Shown: piece by piece, positions 3,193 through 50,595 of the stretch
Layout: each line of letters begins with the position of its first letter
Numbering within the stretch: the first letter of the stretch is position 1
NCBI GenBank assembly: GCA_007376725.1
Contig: VMGT01000003.1
Coordinates: 4,470 to 68,469 of the forward strand
DNA length: 64,000 nucleotides
From: Parcubacteria group bacterium Greene1014_15
GTDB lineage: Bacteria > Patescibacteriota > Minisyncoccia > Phycocordibacterales > VMGT01
Reading direction: 5' to 3'
The notes under the pieces: model-generated
What the model was told of the DNA's origin: nothing
What the model saw: the letters and a program-made list of their open reading frames with translations, nothing else
The model's database searches: none
Made by a program: the position numbers and the translations under genes

Positions 3193-3669
3193 TTAGTGAC
3201 CCCTGTTTGGCGCTTCAGTAACCTCTTTTAAGTACTTATAGAAATCATTTATGGAGCTCGTTGTCGGTTCTTTCATCATGAGAACGAGGGTTGTTTTCTC
3301 TACGTAAAACCGACTTAGAATAGTCAGCATATCACCACTTCTGTCGGTAATTGTATACCACAGGACGGCATGTCTGTCTTCGACTCGAATATCGAGAACA
3401 ATGTTATTTGCTTGACGCGTCTCGACATTGTCATAGTATGTGTCGGTTACACCCGGGACTTGCTTACCATTAATGTTATCTACTGTCATGGTCGAGATTT
3501 TGACTGGCCAACTTGTGAAGTCTGGGAGCTCAACCGTTTGCGTTTGAGCAAATAATATTGTATTGCCTGCCAATAACAGCACAAGACAGAAAAAGACGCC
3601 GAGTACTTTTCTCACTGGATTCTCCTTGGAATTGTTTTGACGCGATAGTGCATCCCATAAACCAAACAC
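3193..3669 (-). CDS. hypothetical secreted protein
   Basis: N-terminal signal-like segment VLGVFFCLVLLLAGNTILFAQTQT. No recognisable catalytic motifs. Confidence 0.45.
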   Translation of the reverse strand: MFGLWDALSRQNNSKENPVRKVLGVFFCLVLLLAGNTILFAQTQTVELPDFTSWPVKISTMTVDNINGKQVPGVTDTYYDNVETRQANNIVLDIRVEDRHAVLWYTITDRSGDMLTILSRFYVEKTTLVLMMKEPTTSSINDFYKYLKEVTEAPNRGH

Positions 3670-3740
3670 ACCATATCATACTTTTTTCTGTTAATCAAGT
3701 TTGAGTCCCTGATATACGAACTTGCATGGGAGATGCATTT

Positions 3741-4361
3741 TTATGGCTTTCTCCACTCCACAATTTTTCCAGCTTCTATTTCAAGCAAATCCGCTTTTCG
3801 AAGAAATTGTATTGTTTTTTTGTCTGCTATATCGTAGTGTTTTGAATCATCCAATTCTTCAGGAATACCCCAGATATTTTCATCGGTAGTCAGCCAGTCG
3901 TCTTCAAAGTTAAGGAGACTAAAAGGCGCGGAATACGAGCGCAGAGTTTTTTTGCCGTTGTCGAGAAAATATTCATTAAAGTACGAGAGGACAAGTTCTC
4001 GGATTGTTGCATAGATAGGGTCACGATAATGCAAGACGGCATGATTTGTTTTGCTCACGGCTCCCCACCTGTTATTGTATCGAAAGAGCGTAACAACATG
4101 GTCATCGTCCTCGCGTGTTGTTCTTAAGTCAAGGAGGAGTGGTTTTTGTCCGTGGTACCAAAAAATAGCAGCAGCGAGCATTGCGCCTTCGACGCACTGG
4201 GCTTTGTTATTTCGCAATACACGAAGCGGTGACTGACAACTATCACCGCGAGCTCCAAAATTAATCGGAATTGCATTGAGAAAATCTTGAATTTTTGAAG
4301 GGGAATTGAGACGTTTGAACACCCAAAATTCTTTATTTTTTTGTTCGGGAAACTTTCGCAT
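3741..4361 (-). CDS. hypothetical protein, possible papain-like (C39 or transglutaminase-like) cysteine peptidase fold
   Basis: Motif KAQCVEGAMLAAAIFWYHG resembles the Cys-containing helix of C39-like peptidases, with downstream His and Asp candidates. No signal peptide. This call is inference only. Confidence 0.35.
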   Translation of the reverse strand: MRKFPEQKNKEFWVFKRLNSPSKIQDFLNAIPINFGARGDSCQSPLRVLRNNKAQCVEGAMLAAAIFWYHGQKPLLLDLRTTREDDDHVVTLFRYNNRWGAVSKTNHAVLHYRDPIYATIRELVLSYFNEYFLDNGKKTLRSYSAPFSLLNFEDDWLTTDENIWGIPEELDDSKHYDIADKKTIQFLRKADLLEIEAGKIVEWRKP

Positions 4362-11298: not shown

Positions 11299-14298
11299 TT
11301 GTTGTTAATAAAATCTCTCTTTTCTATGGCATCTACTCGTTGTTTTAGACTTCGTGTGCGCACACCTTTGTTTTTTGCCGTTGCGTGTCTTTTGCTATTT
11401 GCAACATCCCTCGTGCGCGCTGAAATAGTTTTTCCTTTTAAATTTTCAGGAGGTAATTCTTGTGTGTCATTTGAAGCATGCAGAACATACTGTATGTCGA
11501 TAGGTGTGTTGAGCGCCGATACGGAGACGTGCAAAATGTTTATTGGAACAACGACGACTACAACAACTGCACCCCCACCCACAACATCAACTACATCGCC
11601 TACGACATCGCCGACCCCACTGATAACAACAAGTCCGACGCTGATCTCTACAACCACATCTGATTTTATGACGATACAGCAAAGTGTTCCTGCTGCGCCC
11701 ACGAGTCTCTCGCTATCTCATCAAGACGGCGCCAATGTTACATTGGTTTGGATAGATAACGCAACAAATGAGAATTTTTTTAAACTCGCGTGGAAGAGTG
11801 ACACAGAACTTTTCCAAGGCGTCGGCACTATTCCAAGTGGTACCACATCCTCGACACATCATGGAATTGTTGGAAATAATTTTTATGTCGTACGAGCATG
11901 CAATGATGTAGGATGTAGCGCAGGATCTAACATTCTTTCTGTTATTGTTCCTGATACGCAAACGGTCACGAATCTGAATACAACTTCTACAACCACCACT
12001 TTGTCGGAGCCGCTTTCTCCCACAACTGATCCAATTGAAAGTCCTACTGCCGTACCATCTCGAGTGATTCTTCAATCACAAACGATGACTGACATAAAGC
12101 CTGCTGTTCCGCAAGCGATAGCAAGTCCTGTAGTAATTTCCGGTTCAGTACATGCGACAGATGGCTCTGTTCTCCCTGTGAGCGGATATGTTGAGGTATT
12201 TTATGAAGATAGAGCTCTTGGAAAAGCTGCGGGAGCTGCATTTACTGATGGAGAGTTTTCTGTTCAAGTTGCTGCGGGAAATTACTATGTCAAGATATTT
12301 TTGCCAGCGACAACTGGCTATACACCGTCCGTCCCACAAAGAATTACTGTTACGAATGATACCGAAGTCACCTTTACGGCGAGCGCCAATGCCTCGATTG
12401 TTGGAGGTAAAATCCTCGAGACTGGAACCGGCGCTGTTGCGGCCGGTGTGTCTGGCCGAGTTGTTGCATCATCAAACAATGGCATGTGGCAGGAAGCGCT
12501 CATTGGGACGGACGGAACGTATATACTCAAGCTCGGCATTGGTACGTGGCTTGTTGGTGTTGAAATAGAAAGTGAGAGCGAATACATCGTTTTCGGTGAG
12601 AGGCAATTTCCTATTACTATTACCGCAGATACGCGAATAGAACGAAACTTTATGGTAGAAAAAGCTTCGAGTATTGTCGAAGGACATATTCTCGATCACG
12701 ATGGCGCTGGTGTTGCAGATGTATATGTGGCCATAGATGATAGGCAGTATTCTCCGGGGAACACAGTTGTTTTCATGACAAACCAAAACATTCTGGGCAC
12801 AATGAAACAAATGACTACAGACGCGCGGGGCTATTTCACGACGAAAGTACCCCCTGGAACATATTTTGTACGAACATTCGTGCGTGCCAATCGAGGATAT
12901 ATCAATGCAAAAGAGCGGCAAATACTCGTGAGCGGGGCTAAGACGACAATAAATTTGGAACTGCAGAAGCCAGATGTTTTGATATCAGGCATTGTTTCCA
13001 TTAATGGTTCTCCTGTGGCGGGGGCATTCGTCTGGACATGGTCAAAAGCGGGAGGTTACCAAGAAGCAATCTCAACAAGTAACGGTATGTATTCATTGCG
13101 AGTTCTCCCTGATAGTTCCTGGGTTATTGCGGCGAGAGCGCACGTAAACGACGTTGTATATATGGCGAATGAGGTTGCCGTTGCTGTCGCGGGTGTAACT
13201 CCGATTCACTATGATATCAATCTGCAGGTTGGCAGAGAAATTCCGAAAGCCGCTGTTCTTGAAGCGCAGGCGAATGCTCCGGTTGTGGTGACTGTTGCAA
13301 GCGGCGGCCCTACGATTACTGCTCCGGCAAATACTTTTTCAACTTCGGGAACTGTAGAGATCACGGTCGTGCCCGACACACGAGCCCCTTCACAAGGAGA
13401 GACACATGTTGTCGGTACGGCCTATGATTTTAGTGCGACAAATGTAGAAGGTCAAAATATTACGAATTTTTCACAAGATGTAGTTATTACTATTCCTTAT
13501 AGCGAAGCTGATGTCGTTGCGTTTGGAGTATCGGAAAAAGAGCTCGTCCTTAGTTATTGGGACGAAGGAGTCAGCGCATGGAAAAATATAGATAATTCAA
13601 TCGTAAATACTGTGGATAATACAGTAACAGCGGCTGTGAACCACTTTACACGATTTGCCGTTTTGGCAGCGGCTGATGTTACGCCGCCGGAACCTCCCAC
13701 AGCTTTTGTTGCATCTGCCCTCGGCAATGGCAAAGTACGACTTACGTGGTCAAACCCGCTCAAAGATTTCGATCATGCAAAAGTATATCGCTCGGATGTA
13801 AAAAATAGTCTTGGTATGGTTATCGCTGGTGAAGTTTCCGGTGTGGAATACACCGATGAATCAGGATTAAAAAATGCGACCGCATATTATTACGCAATTC
13901 GTGCCGTAGATCCTGCAGGTAATGAGTCAAATAATGTGACACAGGTGCAAGCGATTGCAGTTGGCACGAGTCTGGTCAAAGTTGCCATGCTCGATCTGCC
14001 GCCAGCTCCAATTCCGGCGACTGGAGCAGCAGTCAAAATAACAGGATTAATTTCTCGCACCTTAAAATTGGGCATGCGTGGTGCAGATGTAACTGTGCTT
14101 CAAAAATTACTTCTACGGGAAAATGTGTATCCGGAAGCAAAGATCACAGGCTATTTTGGAAAATTGACCAAGACAGCTGTTATCAAGTATCAAGAGAAAT
14201 ATGCGAGTGAAATTTTGACGTCCCTTAATCTCACGAAAGGGACTGGTATTGTCGGGGTAAAAACGCGGACAAAAATGAACACATCACTGGCAGAGTAA
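11299..14298 (+). CDS. large secreted surface protein with Thr-rich linker, Ig or FN3-like and carboxypeptidase-regulatory-like repeats and C-terminal peptidoglycan-binding domain
   Basis: Signal peptide. TTTTTTTAPPPTTSTTSPTTSPT linker. Repeated beta-sandwich-like segments. C-terminus LKLGMRGADVTVLQKLLLRENVYPEAKITGYFGKLTKTAVIKYQEK matches the PG_binding_1 pattern. Confidence 0.7.
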   Translation: MLLIKSLFSMASTRCFRLRVRTPLFFAVACLLLFATSLVRAEIVFPFKFSGGNSCVSFEACRTYCMSIGVLSADTETCKMFIGTTTTTTTAPPPTTSTTSPTTSPTPLITTSPTLISTTTSDFMTIQQSVPAAPTSLSLSHQDGANVTLVWIDNATNENFFKLAWKSDTELFQGVGTIPSGTTSSTHHGIVGNNFYVVRACNDVGCSAGSNILSVIVPDTQTVTNLNTTSTTTTLSEPLSPTTDPIESPTAVPSRVILQSQTMTDIKPAVPQAIASPVVISGSVHATDGSVLPVSGYVEVFYEDRALGKAAGAAFTDGEFSVQVAAGNYYVKIFLPATTGYTPSVPQRITVTNDTEVTFTASANASIVGGKILETGTGAVAAGVSGRVVASSNNGMWQEALIGTDGTYILKLGIGTWLVGVEIESESEYIVFGERQFPITITADTRIERNFMVEKASSIVEGHILDHDGAGVADVYVAIDDRQYSPGNTVVFMTNQNILGTMKQMTTDARGYFTTKVPPGTYFVRTFVRANRGYINAKERQILVSGAKTTINLELQKPDVLISGIVSINGSPVAGAFVWTWSKAGGYQEAISTSNGMYSLRVLPDSSWVIAARAHVNDVVYMANEVAVAVAGVTPIHYDINLQVGREIPKAAVLEAQANAPVVVTVASGGPTITAPANTFSTSGTVEITVVPDTRAPSQGETHVVGTAYDFSATNVEGQNITNFSQDVVITIPYSEADVVAFGVSEKELVLSYWDEGVSAWKNIDNSIVNTVDNTVTAAVNHFTRFAVLAAADVTPPEPPTAFVASALGNGKVRLTWSNPLKDFDHAKVYRSDVKNSLGMVIAGEVSGVEYTDESGLKNATAYYYAIRAVDPAGNESNNVTQVQAIAVGTSLVKVAMLDLPPAPIPATGAAVKITGLISRTLKLGMRGADVTVLQKLLLRENVYPEAKITGYFGKLTKTAVIKYQEKYASEILTSLNLTKGTGIVGVKTRTKMNTSLAE

Positions 14299-14352
14299 AA
14301 CAAAGAACAGATTTCAAAAAAGACCTCTGCTAAGGGCTCTTTTTTGAAATCT

Positions 14353-14380
14353 TTGACAGAATTAATTAGTATGATATACT
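14353..14380 (+). promoter_or_regulatory. sigma70-like promoter TTGACA-16-TATACT
   Basis: TTGACA at about 14353-14358 and TATACT at about 14375-14380, immediately upstream of the GC-rich segment. Confidence 0.5.
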
Positions 14381-14387
14381 GTCCGTA

Positions 14388-14831
14388 GTTAAAGGCTGAT
14401 TTGAACATTGGGGCTTGCGTGGTAGAACAGCCGCCACACATGTAAACAAGCTCCGAGATGGGACAGTGGCGAGGGCCGCCGGCTCTGATGTGGGCTGCTG
14501 CGCAGGTGCCCTCTTTAACACAGGCTATGGGTGTTTTCTGGTGCTTGTCGTTACGAGCGTCTCCGACGATCGGTCGGGATTGCTTCGGGCTTGGGCCCAG
14601 CGTTTAGCAGCTCCGGGGCCGCAGTTACGCGCCGCGCCCCCCACTGTTCCTTTAGGGCACCAGCCACTTACCATCGCGAATGACGTGCGGAGAAACAGGT
14701 TTCTTCTCCGAACAACACACATATCGCGCCAGGGAGAAGGCTCGGACGCAAGTTGGCTACCCCCCAGTAGCGGGGCAATGGCCAAAGGCCGCCTTATCGC
14801 ACAATCTGCGACAGGCGGCCTTACCTTTTTT
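14388..14831 (+). ncRNA. candidate structured non-coding RNA of unknown family (GC-rich, promoter-to-terminator unit)
   Basis: GC content is far above the flanking DNA. It has its own promoter and terminator. Local helices include GAGGGC...GCCCTC and CGGAGAA...TTCTCCG. The ORFs inside are Arg/Ala/Pro/Gly-rich and lack an RBS. No hallmark motifs of RNase P, tmRNA or SRP RNA were found. Confidence 0.45.
14787..14831 (+). terminator. intrinsic terminator
   Basis: GGCCGCC-(TTA TCGCA CAATC TGCGA CA)-GGCGGCC followed by TTACCTTTTTT. Confidence 0.75.
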
Positions 14832-14858
14832 ACAAATCACAGTATACAATGAATAGTA

Positions 14859-15605
14859 ATGTTCAAGTATCTTATTGCGGTGTTGTGTTTAGTTTTTGGC
14901 GCACTCACGTTGATGTATTTTTATATTGGCGTACCAGTCATATATGACGGAGCGAAAGATGTTATTTTAAACGTTCATCGGGCGGACAACGCAGAGCAAT
15001 CAATTTCAAAAATATACATTTCCGCTTTCTATTTTGTTCCGAAAAACAAAAAGGAAGATATTTTTACAGGATGGAGCACGACGCTTCAAGAAAAACTTGA
15101 AGCTCTCATGCGTTTTCATACTGTGGAACTTCAAGAAAAATCTGAACTTACGTACACAATATATCCAGAACCCATTATCGGTCGTCTGAATAATATCGAA
15201 TATGACACTTTTATTACCCAGCACGGCAATCCAGAGGCGTTGCGTCATGTTGTGCCAGAAATAGAATCGAGAGTTTTTGAAGCGAATGGAGATTTGTTCC
15301 GGAATGATTTCGGAACGATTCCGAAAGATGCATATCATGTGCTTGTCGTGATGTATGAAGGTGTTGGTTCAATAGGCGGAGACAATATCGCGCTCATTTC
15401 TCGGACATTTCTTACAAGCAGTGAATATGCTCCTGTGAGCGAAAGTCTTCTTGCGCATGAGTTTTATCATACACTTGGCTTGCCGGATGCATATACGCTT
15501 CCCGAAGGCACCGTGACATCACAAGATATCATGGGACTTGGCAGGTATACTCCGATCGGGCAGACATACCTTTCGCAAAAATCCCTTCAAGCATTAGGAC
15601 TGTAG
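14859..15605 (+). CDS. membrane-anchored zinc metallopeptidase-like protein (HExxH, metzincin-like)
   Basis: N-terminal TM YLIAVLCLVFGALTLMYFYIGV. HEFYHTLGLPDAY zinc-binding motif. Downstream Met (DIMGLG). Confidence 0.55.
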   Translation: MFKYLIAVLCLVFGALTLMYFYIGVPVIYDGAKDVILNVHRADNAEQSISKIYISAFYFVPKNKKEDIFTGWSTTLQEKLEALMRFHTVELQEKSELTYTIYPEPIIGRLNNIEYDTFITQHGNPEALRHVVPEIESRVFEANGDLFRNDFGTIPKDAYHVLVVMYEGVGSIGGDNIALISRTFLTSSEYAPVSESLLAHEFYHTLGLPDAYTLPEGTVTSQDIMGLGRYTPIGQTYLSQKSLQALGL

Positions 15606-29769: not shown

Positions 29770-31044
29770 TTACTGAACAACAATTTTCCCTTGCAAATCT
29801 TCGATCATTGTTGCACTTGAAACTGTATGCGTAAGTGTGATAACAGATTTGTTTGTTGCCCGAAGTGTGCTCACCCCATCGTCGCTTCCGATTGTTGAGT
29901 CAATAAACGTTATCTTGCTCTTGTCAAATGAATATGCGGCTTCCAAAAGACGTGATTTTTGAAATGTCGCCTCCGAGAAATCTTTTGTTTCAATAGTATC
30001 GATTATGCTGTCTTGTACAATTGCGACGGTATCCTCTGATTCGGTTATGGTATGAACAGCACTATTCTCGAGATAAAGTTTGTTAGTATGCTCGAGAAAA
30101 AAATTCCATGCCCGCACCGATGTATTGAGAAGGTGCAATTTGGCATCAACGAACTTCAATGTCTCATCTTTAAACAATCCGTTCATCAAACCACGGGCGG
30201 AAACAGTTTTTTGTTCCCATGGTCTTTGTGCATGAATATCAAGTGAAATGTTGTCAGTATTTCTGATAGTTATGTCTGATGCTGGCACGACACGAACATG
30301 CCACATTTTGACAGAGGAATTTGAAAGCGAGAGCACGGAAGAAATTTCAAATTCGTTTTTATTTGGAAAAACATACGCCGCTGTTGTTTGTTGTGGAAAT
30401 GCTTCATCCACACGAGCCCCTGTTCCAAAGCAAGGGTCGAGGAGGAGTTTTTTCGAGTTTTGTAGAGTGATTTCAGTGTTGTCGCATGTGGTCACATTCA
30501 CCGAGTCCCACGAGGTTATGTGTGCGCGACTTGAATCCATGAATTTCTGAAACGGGAAACAGCCGGCTGCTGTTGTTGTTATATCCTGTGCAGCAAGAGA
30601 AGCACTATCATGAAAATTCCAAGAAACGGTTTCTTCACACGAAACGGCAAGGATGGAATTTTGGAGAATGACTCTACTGTTGTCATACGCGTTGAGCGCA
30701 ATTATTTTACCAAGCGAACTTACGTGCTCAAATAAACTATTTCTAACGACAAGTGTCGCATTGTCTTTGAGTACGATGGATTCTCCGACAAGATAGTGTT
30801 GATTTTCGATAACGAGCTTCTGGTCGCCCCGCAGTATGATTGGTTTGTTTTCCACATCGATTCCTTCGTAGTCAGAGTTGTCATTTTTAACCGACCGATC
30901 CGCGGGAAGGGTGGAAGTTGTAACAGGCGGAACACGCGATACATACGTATGAGTGCGCAGACTTTTATAGACACCAATAAGAAAAGCAAGCGTACAGGTA
31001 ACGATGACGATCATCATGTATGTTTTTTTACTGAATATATCCAT
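29770..31044 (-). CDS. membrane-anchored protein with parallel beta-helix-like repeats
   Basis: N-terminal TM. Repeated xLxNS motifs (VVRNSLF, ILQNSIL, TLQNSKK, YLENSAV). Confidence 0.5.
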   Translation of the reverse strand: MDIFSKKTYMMIVIVTCTLAFLIGVYKSLRTHTYVSRVPPVTTSTLPADRSVKNDNSDYEGIDVENKPIILRGDQKLVIENQHYLVGESIVLKDNATLVVRNSLFEHVSSLGKIIALNAYDNSRVILQNSILAVSCEETVSWNFHDSASLAAQDITTTAAGCFPFQKFMDSSRAHITSWDSVNVTTCDNTEITLQNSKKLLLDPCFGTGARVDEAFPQQTTAAYVFPNKNEFEISSVLSLSNSSVKMWHVRVVPASDITIRNTDNISLDIHAQRPWEQKTVSARGLMNGLFKDETLKFVDAKLHLLNTSVRAWNFFLEHTNKLYLENSAVHTITESEDTVAIVQDSIIDTIETKDFSEATFQKSRLLEAAYSFDKSKITFIDSTIGSDDGVSTLRATNKSVITLTHTVSSATMIEDLQGKIVVQ

Positions 31045-45735: not shown

Positions 45736-45785
45736 CCATGAACTAAAAACAGAAGATTATCTATACTCGTCATTGCTATGCGGAG

Positions 45786-45861
45786 CCCGAAGCAATCCAG
45801 AGTATAATGGCAGAATCCTAGATTGCTTCGGGCTCCGCATAGCAATGACGGAAAAAATATT
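45786..45861. repeat. family D long hairpin element (30-bp perfect arms)
   Basis: CGTCATTGCTATGCGGAGCCCGAAGCAATC-loop(22)-GATTGCTTCGGGCTCCGCATAGCAATGACG. The loop contains TATAAT. Confidence 0.8.
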
Positions 45862-50307: not shown

Positions 50308-50397
50308 TAGTCTACCGGGAACAGAGCACATCTTATTGAATTTTTAACAAGTATGACAAACGACGGGCGCCGCATAAGCGCCCGTCTTCTCTTTTTG

Positions 50398-50486
50398 TTG
50401 TCATTGCGAGCCCCAAGGGGGCGCGGCAATCCAGTTCTTATACAGTATTCACACTGGATTGCTTCGGGCTTCGCTCTCGCAATGAC
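50398..50486. repeat. family D hairpin element (degenerate copy)
   Basis: GTCATTGCGAG...GGCAATCCA-loop-TGGATTGCTTCGGGCTTCGCTCTCGCAATGAC. The ends pair and the interior is asymmetric. Confidence 0.65.
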
Positions 50487-50595
50487 GCTTGCAAAGGCGT
50501 TTCGTAATTCAAAGTACAGTGCTTGACATTTTTCCAGTAATTCGCAAGCTAAGAGATAGAAGTACCCAAAAGTTCGTTGATAGGAGTAGTGTGTA

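Follow-up and report, generated by a model that had tools for sequence, protein, structure and literature searches.

In a 64-kb stretch of DNA from a member of the Parcubacteria (64,000 nt in all, called the window in what follows) there is a GC-rich intergenic segment at 14353-14836, lying between a gene for a surface protein and a gene for a metzincin-like protein of 248 amino acids (aa). We conclude, with moderate confidence, that this segment is a gene in its own right, encoding a structured non-coding RNA (ncRNA) of ~445 nt whose family is absent from Rfam 15 and is found in five closely related Parcubacteria lineages. The unit is a candidate for a new, narrowly distributed family of structured small RNA (sRNA) in these bacteria. 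The most economical picture of the locus is an order of separate elements, namely the upstream terminator, the RNA promoter, the RNA, its terminator or terminators, the -10 box belonging to the downstream gene, and the ATG of that gene.

The downstream 248-aa protein has a 100% identical counterpart in Parcubacteria group bacterium Gr01-1014_48, a metagenome-assembled member of the candidate phyla radiation (CPR)/Patescibacteria. Bacteria of this group have tiny genomes with very little non-coding DNA. Lineages whose adjoining protein retains as little as 55% identity have kept the RNA, and the cell thus pays for it. In a literature search we found no paper on lineage-specific ncRNAs in CPR/Patescibacteria. 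If its expression were confirmed, the RNA would provide a tractable example of a CPR-specific structured RNA, and it would also show how fast peripheral domains swap.

The predicted transcription unit and its relatives

Homologues of the downstream protein number more than 180, every one from Patescibacteria. Contigs were fetched for the nearest of these, and are denoted L004 (69% protein identity), L006 (61%) and L008 (55%). All three show the gene order of the window: the gene for a PG_binding_1 surface protein comes first, then a non-coding stretch of 450-570 nt, and after it the gene for the 248-aa protein, with those for a dCache-HAMP histidine kinase and a stand-alone receiver behind it. 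For a fifth lineage, L158 (57%), there is a short contig that contains only the 3' end of the RNA, the terminator and the gene. The RNAs of the relatives are ~330 nt in length with a GC content of 0.45-0.46, the same as that of their genomes.

The segment begins with a sigma-70-type promoter at 14353-14380 on the + strand. The -35 box TTGACA (14353-58) is separated by a 16-nt spacer from the -10 box TATACT (14375-80), and the TG of an extended -10 element lies at 14372-73 (TGaTATACT). A TTGACA-16-TATACT promoter had been proposed in an original prediction made from the sequence of the window, and it is borne out with 11 of the 12 consensus positions in addition to the TG. In the intergenic alignment of the window with L004, L006 and L008 (the four lineages referred to below) both boxes are invariant within variable flanks, and they are among the few invariant blocks. 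On the other side of the -35 box, and directly adjoining it, is the terminator hairpin of the surface-protein gene (14309-14352; inverted repeat I1). Its 20-bp stem lies between an A run and a T run, its free energy is -21.4 kcal/mol, and it looks like a bidirectional terminator. Equivalent hairpins are found at the corresponding position in L004, L006 and L008.

At the 3' end of the unit there is an intrinsic-terminator-like hairpin at 14785-14831 (+ strand; inverted repeat I6). The outer 10-bp stem is formed by AAGGCCGCCU and AGGCGGCCUU (14785-94 and 14813-22), within which lies an inner 5-bp UCGCA/UGCGA helix, and the hairpin is followed by ACC and six U residues (ACCUUUUUU). Its free energy of -26.8 kcal/mol and the U run that follows agree with the strong two-tier intrinsic terminator described in the original prediction. 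A simple terminator scan did not call this hairpin because there is an internal loop in the stem and the U run starts 3 nt beyond it. In the relatives this place is taken by one or by two terminators of the hairpin-plus-U-run type, tandem ones among them.

Promoter and terminator frame a predicted primary transcript of ~445 nt (14381-14831, + strand), the start of which would lie near 14386-14388. The minimum free energy of the transcript is -191.8 kcal/mol, with z = -3.44. Several G-U pairs in the conserved helices would be A-C mismatches on the opposite strand; this favors the + strand, in agreement with the orientation of promoter and terminator. Across the lineages the unit is framed by the upstream terminator, an invariant near-consensus promoter and one or more downstream intrinsic terminators. 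Both a promoter and a terminator of its own are therefore conserved, as would be required of a stand-alone sRNA gene.

In L006 an extra ~130 nt (3863-4000) lies between the second terminator and the -10 box of the gene, and L008 has an additional hairpin between its two terminators, indicating that the 3' side of the RNA locus is plastic in every lineage. Within the window, 14375-14393 (TATACTGT) in the -10 region of the RNA promoter and 14828-14846 (ACAGTATA) at the -10-like box of the downstream gene are inverted copies around the palindrome GTATAC (I3). In all likelihood they are no more than two -10 boxes, although a shared operator is conceivable.

The segment was originally picked out as far richer in GC than the rest of the window, and it is indeed the top GC peak of the entire 64 kb when averaged over 200, 300 or 400 nt. 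The corresponding maxima of 0.65, 0.62 and 0.612 compare with a mean of 0.45 and a standard deviation of 0.04-0.05. The 200-nt averages within the region range over 0.59-0.65, and the 3' block at 14551-14836 has a GC content of 0.60.

Proposed architecture of the RNA

Within the RNA there is a core of 159-168 nt in each of the four lineages, best supported within its first ~70 nt, and having a common architecture. GGCUG(U) is followed by a helix of 9-11 bp (H2) that encloses a 4-bp helix (H3), with an invariant loop ACAGCC. In the window this conserved hairpin occupies 14409-14455 on the + strand. H2 is formed by UGGGGCUUG and CAAGCUCCG (14409-17 and 14447-55), H3 is GUGG paired with CCAC (14419-22 and 14434-37), and the apical loop carries ACAGCC at 14427-32. 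The 3' strand contains an A-rich bulge of 9 nt at 14438-46, the equivalent A-rich strand being 8-9 nt across the lineages. All nine pairs of H2 are formed in all four lineages, with six of them changed on both sides, and H3 has one compensatory pair. Upstream of the hairpin, the invariant GGCUG at 14394-14398 (+ strand) is complementary to CAGCC in the loop (14428-14432), and we propose that it is the 5' strand of a pseudoknot. It lies 30 nt upstream of the loop, and its pairing would form a possible hairpin-loop pseudoknot of the HL-out type.

Pairs were counted in a four-lineage alignment fitted by a covariance model to the structure. MAFFT alone misaligns the helices and aligns the window poorly to its relatives, and model-fitted alignments were used instead. 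Taking the proposed pseudoknot together with H2 and H3, 98.7% of the cells are paired, compared with 29-45% when the partners are slid. For all 34 nested pairs the figure is 98.1%, compared with 22-45% in the slid controls; 14 of these pairs are changed on both sides, and none of 500 shuffles reached the observed values. Further helices with compensatory changes are found among the relatives. A covariance model constructed from L006 alone matches the window at 14389-14539 with a score of 19.3 bits (E = 0.003 in the 190 kb searched), and the L006 RNA folds with z = -6.57 relative to shuffled sequence. We thus find, for four sequences in a model-fitted alignment, a structure that is kept by compensatory substitutions in the absence of a coding signal. 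The compensatory changes, together with a promoter that is conserved despite only 55-69% identity in the flanking protein, point to selection on the RNA.

The remaining part of the ~160-nt core (14456-14545, + strand) contains tentative counterparts of the helices H4-H6 of the relatives, such as GCCCU...UGGGU followed by GUUUUCU. The alignment is of low confidence here, and the correspondence was made by eye only. The local helices pointed out in the original prediction are present, namely GTGCGGAGAA/TTCTCCGAAC, and GAGGGC/GCCCTC within inverted repeats I2/I7.

Peripheral domains are swapped between the lineages, the relatives having a ~65-nt 5' domain and the window a ~240-nt 3' extension. 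By eye, the 5' end of the window RNA matches an internal point of the RNA of the relatives, not their 5' end. The 5' domain of the relatives has a hairpin loop CUGCAC that pairs with GUGCAG on its 3' side, and its stem exhibits 4-5 compensatory changes between L006 and L004; this domain is absent from the window RNA. The extension lies between core and terminator (14546-14784, + strand), has a GC content of about 0.60, and is private to this genome, with no counterpart in L004, L006 or L008. All other contigs of the same organism are 100% identical across the RNA region, and therefore give no measure of how far the extension is conserved.

The extension holds half of a 10-bp long-range helix (14460-69 with 14641-50), a hairpin at 14685-14713 and a possible small pseudoknot GCUAC-CCCCCA-GUAGC-GGGG at 14756-75. 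However, the wider GC-rich body at 14456-14785 folds no better than shuffled sequence (z = -1.42). GC is flat over the codon positions in this region, and a blastn search with the transcript (14381-14832) gave no match in plasmids or phages. A group I intron was considered as the origin of the extension and rejected, since there is no Rfam match and deletion of the extension fails to restore the architecture of the relatives. The extension was probably acquired recently in evolution and may matter little. The proposal of a novel structured ncRNA thus holds in so far as there is a non-coding promoter-to-terminator unit of no Rfam family, with homologues that carry compensatory changes, but it does not extend to the GC-rich bulk that first drew attention. 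There is a caution in this for GC-based searches for RNA. The GC-rich part here is the least conserved and the least structured, and the GC content of the core is only moderately raised.

The extension also contains a 16-mer, GGATTGCTTCGGGCTT (14577-14592, + strand), in common with hairpin repeats at 45768-45850 and 50395-50487. The match is real, being exact at 14577 and 50456, with one mismatch at 45783 (- strand) and two at 45820, where 0.03 chance matches would be expected. In local alignments between the RNA and the repeats the likeness ends at 16-18 nt, and therefore neither an invasion of the RNA gene by a repeat nor the derivation of the repeats from the RNA, both of which had been suggested, can be demonstrated. 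The repeats themselves are intergenic hairpins of ~85-90 nt (GTCATTGC...GCAATCC, loop, GGATTGC...GCAATGAC).

We have sought further copies of the RNA. When the window and 19 related loci were searched with covariance models, filters being off, no second copy turned up, and a scan of a genome collection with the downstream protein gave 21 loci, with the RNA only in the known L004 lineage. The core-hairpin pattern GGCTGWT-N14-25-GYGG-N1-7-ACAGCCNCCRYA gave only chance matches in viral contigs. In metagenome contigs it had at least 120 matches, and among those listed were GC-rich coding DNA and the already known L006 contig. This pattern is too permissive for GC-rich coding DNA.

Known RNA classes and coding potential

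No part of the window matches Rfam 15 at gathering thresholds. The Rfam covariance scan suggested with the original prediction was run on 14250-14950 at E <= 10, and gave no meaningful match. All were chance matches, including microRNA hairpins, sR23 and, as the best, a terminator-shaped match to Pseudomonas P11. The three relatives and the L006 RNA alone (3525-3870) similarly gave no Rfam match beyond chance.

The RNase P RNAs of CPR bacteria have diverged and are hard to detect, requiring lowered thresholds (PMC8172020), and for this reason hallmark motifs were also sought directly. The motifs of RNase P RNA that form P4, CR-I (GGAAAGUCC-like) and CR-V (ACAGAANNNGGCUUA-like), occur at or below shuffle expectation on both strands, and the one string resembling CR-I among the relatives belongs to the minus strand and is contained in H5, a helix paired locally. 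The T-loop and 5' motifs of transfer-messenger RNA (tmRNA) are also at or below shuffle expectation on both strands, and ARAGORN found no tRNA or tmRNA in the window or in L004, L006 and L008. A tmRNA-like tag frame downstream of ACAGCC was considered and discarded, the frames being different between lineages. For signal recognition particle (SRP) RNA, the 18-nt string of domain IV is absent and GGAAGCAGCC-like strings are found at chance level only; we observe neither the domain IV motif (a GGAA tetraloop with AGCA-containing loops) nor a model match. Motif scans, Rfam and ARAGORN are therefore in agreement with the original statement that the hallmarks of RNase P, tmRNA and SRP RNA are lacking. 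The loose resemblance to RNase P RNA that had also been noted is at chance level.

The unit resembles orphan structured ncRNA classes of bacteria that were discovered as long or GC-rich intergenic regions (such as the raiA motif, OLE, ROOL, GOLLD and motifs named after lineages, among them Bacteroidales-1 and Chloroflexi-1) in being an intergenic promoter-to-terminator unit enriched in GC within a genome of lower GC, with multiple helices carrying compensatory changes, a possible pseudoknot and restriction to one lineage. It differs from them in having no match to their Rfam models, a narrower distribution (five lineages), a smaller size, and peripheral domains that vary among close relatives. 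It shares with RNase P RNA (RF00010/RF00011, including the diverged CPR forms; PMC8172020) a length of 330-450 nt, GC enrichment, pseudoknots and probably high expression, but there is no P4 helix with CR-I and CR-V and no model match at E <= 10. In the conserved pseudoknot proposed here, the loop of a hairpin would pair with a strand lying upstream of it, unlike the geometry of P4 or P6. tmRNA (ssrA) is of similar size and has more than one H-type pseudoknot in series, as is the case at least in the relatives. The window RNA, however, has no tRNA-like domain, CCA, T-arm or conserved tag frame, and is negative with ARAGORN and Rfam.

The two open reading frames (ORFs) that had been reported as the only ones inside the segment, of 145 aa (+ strand) and 86 aa (- strand), both exist. 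Neither has a match in Pfam, and a search of 5.8 billion proteins gave no homologue of the 145-aa ORF. The GC contents at its first, second and third codon positions are 0.62, 0.59 and 0.55, where real genes in this DNA have 0.52-0.59, 0.35-0.47 and 0.37-0.49. An open frame of 150 codons is mildly long (P = 0.026 in shuffles). No reading frame is conserved among the four RNAs, and L006 and L008 are similar in all frames of both strands, as nucleotide identity alone predicts. A further ORF of 83 aa on the minus strand (14190-14441; 72 aa in public assemblies) shares DNA with the RNA promoter, the terminator and the last part of the surface-protein gene. It is probably spurious, since no such gene is called in L004, L006 or L008.

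Alternative readings and the possible role of the RNA

It had been suggested that the segment might be a long cis-regulatory leader, like a riboswitch or an attenuator. The core would then sense a signal and set terminator read-through into an operon made up of the metzincin-like gene and the genes for the Cache histidine kinase and the receiver. The RNA does lie directly upstream of the operon and in the same orientation in all five lineages, with terminators between RNA and gene, and its promoter-proximal pseudoknot domain resembles an aptamer. HL-out pseudoknots occur in the aptamers of preQ1-III and in SAM-II/V-type folds. As in leaders of that kind, there is a hairpin close to the promoter with a loop that would pair with a strand beside it, terminators precede a co-oriented gene, and the A-rich strand beside the pseudoknot could line the groove. 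We consider a leader unlikely, however, because the RNA is missing from distant homologues of the gene and the gene has a -10 box of its own. The -10-like box TATACA (14843-48, within 14843-14861, + strand) lies 10 nt before the ATG (14859) with no Shine-Dalgarno sequence; while it lacks a good -35 box, as a leader would allow, its position beside the ATG suggests that the mRNA of the putative peptidase would start after the RNA. A TATAAT/TATACT box 6-13 nt before the ATG, likewise without a Shine-Dalgarno sequence, is found in relatives with the RNA as well as in several that lack it but have an intergenic gap, and the same layout is common at the first genes of operons in the window. Most of the gene family is without the RNA. 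In homologues of 53% identity or less (the genome-collection loci and three more contigs) the gene follows the preceding gene directly or after 70-380 nt, and the four-lineage covariance model, with filters off, found no RNA upstream of ~20 of these homologues. The RNA occurs only with proteins of 55% identity or more, and so does not travel with the gene family as a leader would. In addition, a long stretch that differs in length (about 100-330 nt) separates core and terminator, the relatives have tandem terminators, no riboswitch model matches, and no conserved switching helix or anti-terminator pairing was seen by eye, one candidate in L006 not being kept in L008.

The private extension raises a different possibility, that the unit is a remnant or passenger, i.e. 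inserted foreign or mobile DNA such as a decayed relative of the hairpin repeats, which carries promoter and terminator by chance and gives a functionless RNA. The extension is compositionally atypical and not significantly structured, the 16-mer is held in common with dispersed hairpin repeats, and the unit looks inserted between two genes that in more distant relatives lie side by side. But promoter boxes and a core hairpin with compensatory changes have been conserved while the flanking protein has fallen to 55-69% identity, there is no plasmid or phage match and no second copy in the window or related loci, and the likeness to the repeats is limited to 16-18 nt. We regard this explanation as distinctly improbable. 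Size, GC enrichment, a strong promoter, pseudoknots and the known divergence of CPR RNase P RNA (PMC8172020) could suggest a highly diverged RNase P RNA, tmRNA or SRP RNA missed by the standard models. Given that no such model matches the window RNA or the L006 RNA on either strand at E <= 10, that ARAGORN is negative, that hallmark motifs are at or below chance and that no tag reading frame is conserved, this is very improbable indeed. The lack of the RNA at the equivalent locus of distant relatives is neutral in this regard, as the gene for a housekeeping RNA could lie elsewhere. Finally, the somewhat greater than expected length of the 150-codon frame (P = 0.026) might indicate a protein-coding fragment, the 145-aa or the 86-aa ORF, acquired horizontally from a GC-rich donor. 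The flat GC over codon positions lacks the high third-position value of a GC-rich gene, there is no Pfam match or homologue, the ORF crosses both the conserved RNA hairpin and the terminator, and no frame is conserved in the relatives. This is the least credible of the alternatives.

A number of points weigh against our reading of the segment as a stand-alone gene for a structured ncRNA. Only four full sequences and one partial sequence are available, and the model-fitted alignment favors pairing in the counts. The GGCUG:CAGCC interaction is invariant in all four lineages; it is therefore compatible with pairing but has no support from covariation. More than half of the window RNA is lineage specific and has no detectable structure. 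All known copies are syntenic and co-oriented with the downstream operon, so that a role in cis cannot be separated from one in trans, and the family may extend beyond the five lineages found. The mode of action that we outline here, in trans and through binding of a protein or ligand, is an inference only.

As a stand-alone RNA, it would be made constitutively, terminated, and act in trans. Selection appears to be on shape and on an invariant loop with an invariant partner, rather than on a long single-stranded seed. This favors a folded RNA that might bind a protein or a small ligand, as a scaffold or decoy, over an antisense regulator, although our confidence in this is low. More speculatively, and with little expectation that it will prove correct, the conserved ~65-nt pseudoknot between loop and upstream strand could be a new CPR-specific sensing or protein-binding module around which peripheral domains are freely exchanged. 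The RNA might then be the first riboswitch-like controller of the adjacent operon for metzincin, Cache kinase and receiver, or else serve as RNA subunit in a Parcubacteria ribonucleoprotein that has yet to be described.

The 248-aa protein encoded downstream (14859-15605) has an N-terminal hydrophobic segment, as judged by eye, and an invariant HEFYHTLGxxD, corresponding to the HExxHxxGxxD zinc site of metzincin- or snapalysin-like proteins. It has no match in Pfam, and matches to M6 and snapalysin models in NCBIfam are below threshold. In the loci examined the gene often follows a large PG_binding_1 surface protein, and where downstream sequence was fetched it precedes the dCache-HAMP histidine kinase and the stand-alone receiver. 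Judged from its sequence and setting, it looks like a member of an unannotated protease family tied to a two-component system. Homologues of the gene in other Patescibacteria share the arrangement of its start, which recurs at many other genes of the window, with a TATACT/TATAAT box 7-19 nt before the start codon and no Shine-Dalgarno sequence, for example at 3741-4361 (- strand), 23061, 29083, 29770-31044 (- strand), 32261, 45978, 48169 and 58790. Leaderless or near-leaderless mRNAs thus look to be common in this Parcubacteria genome.

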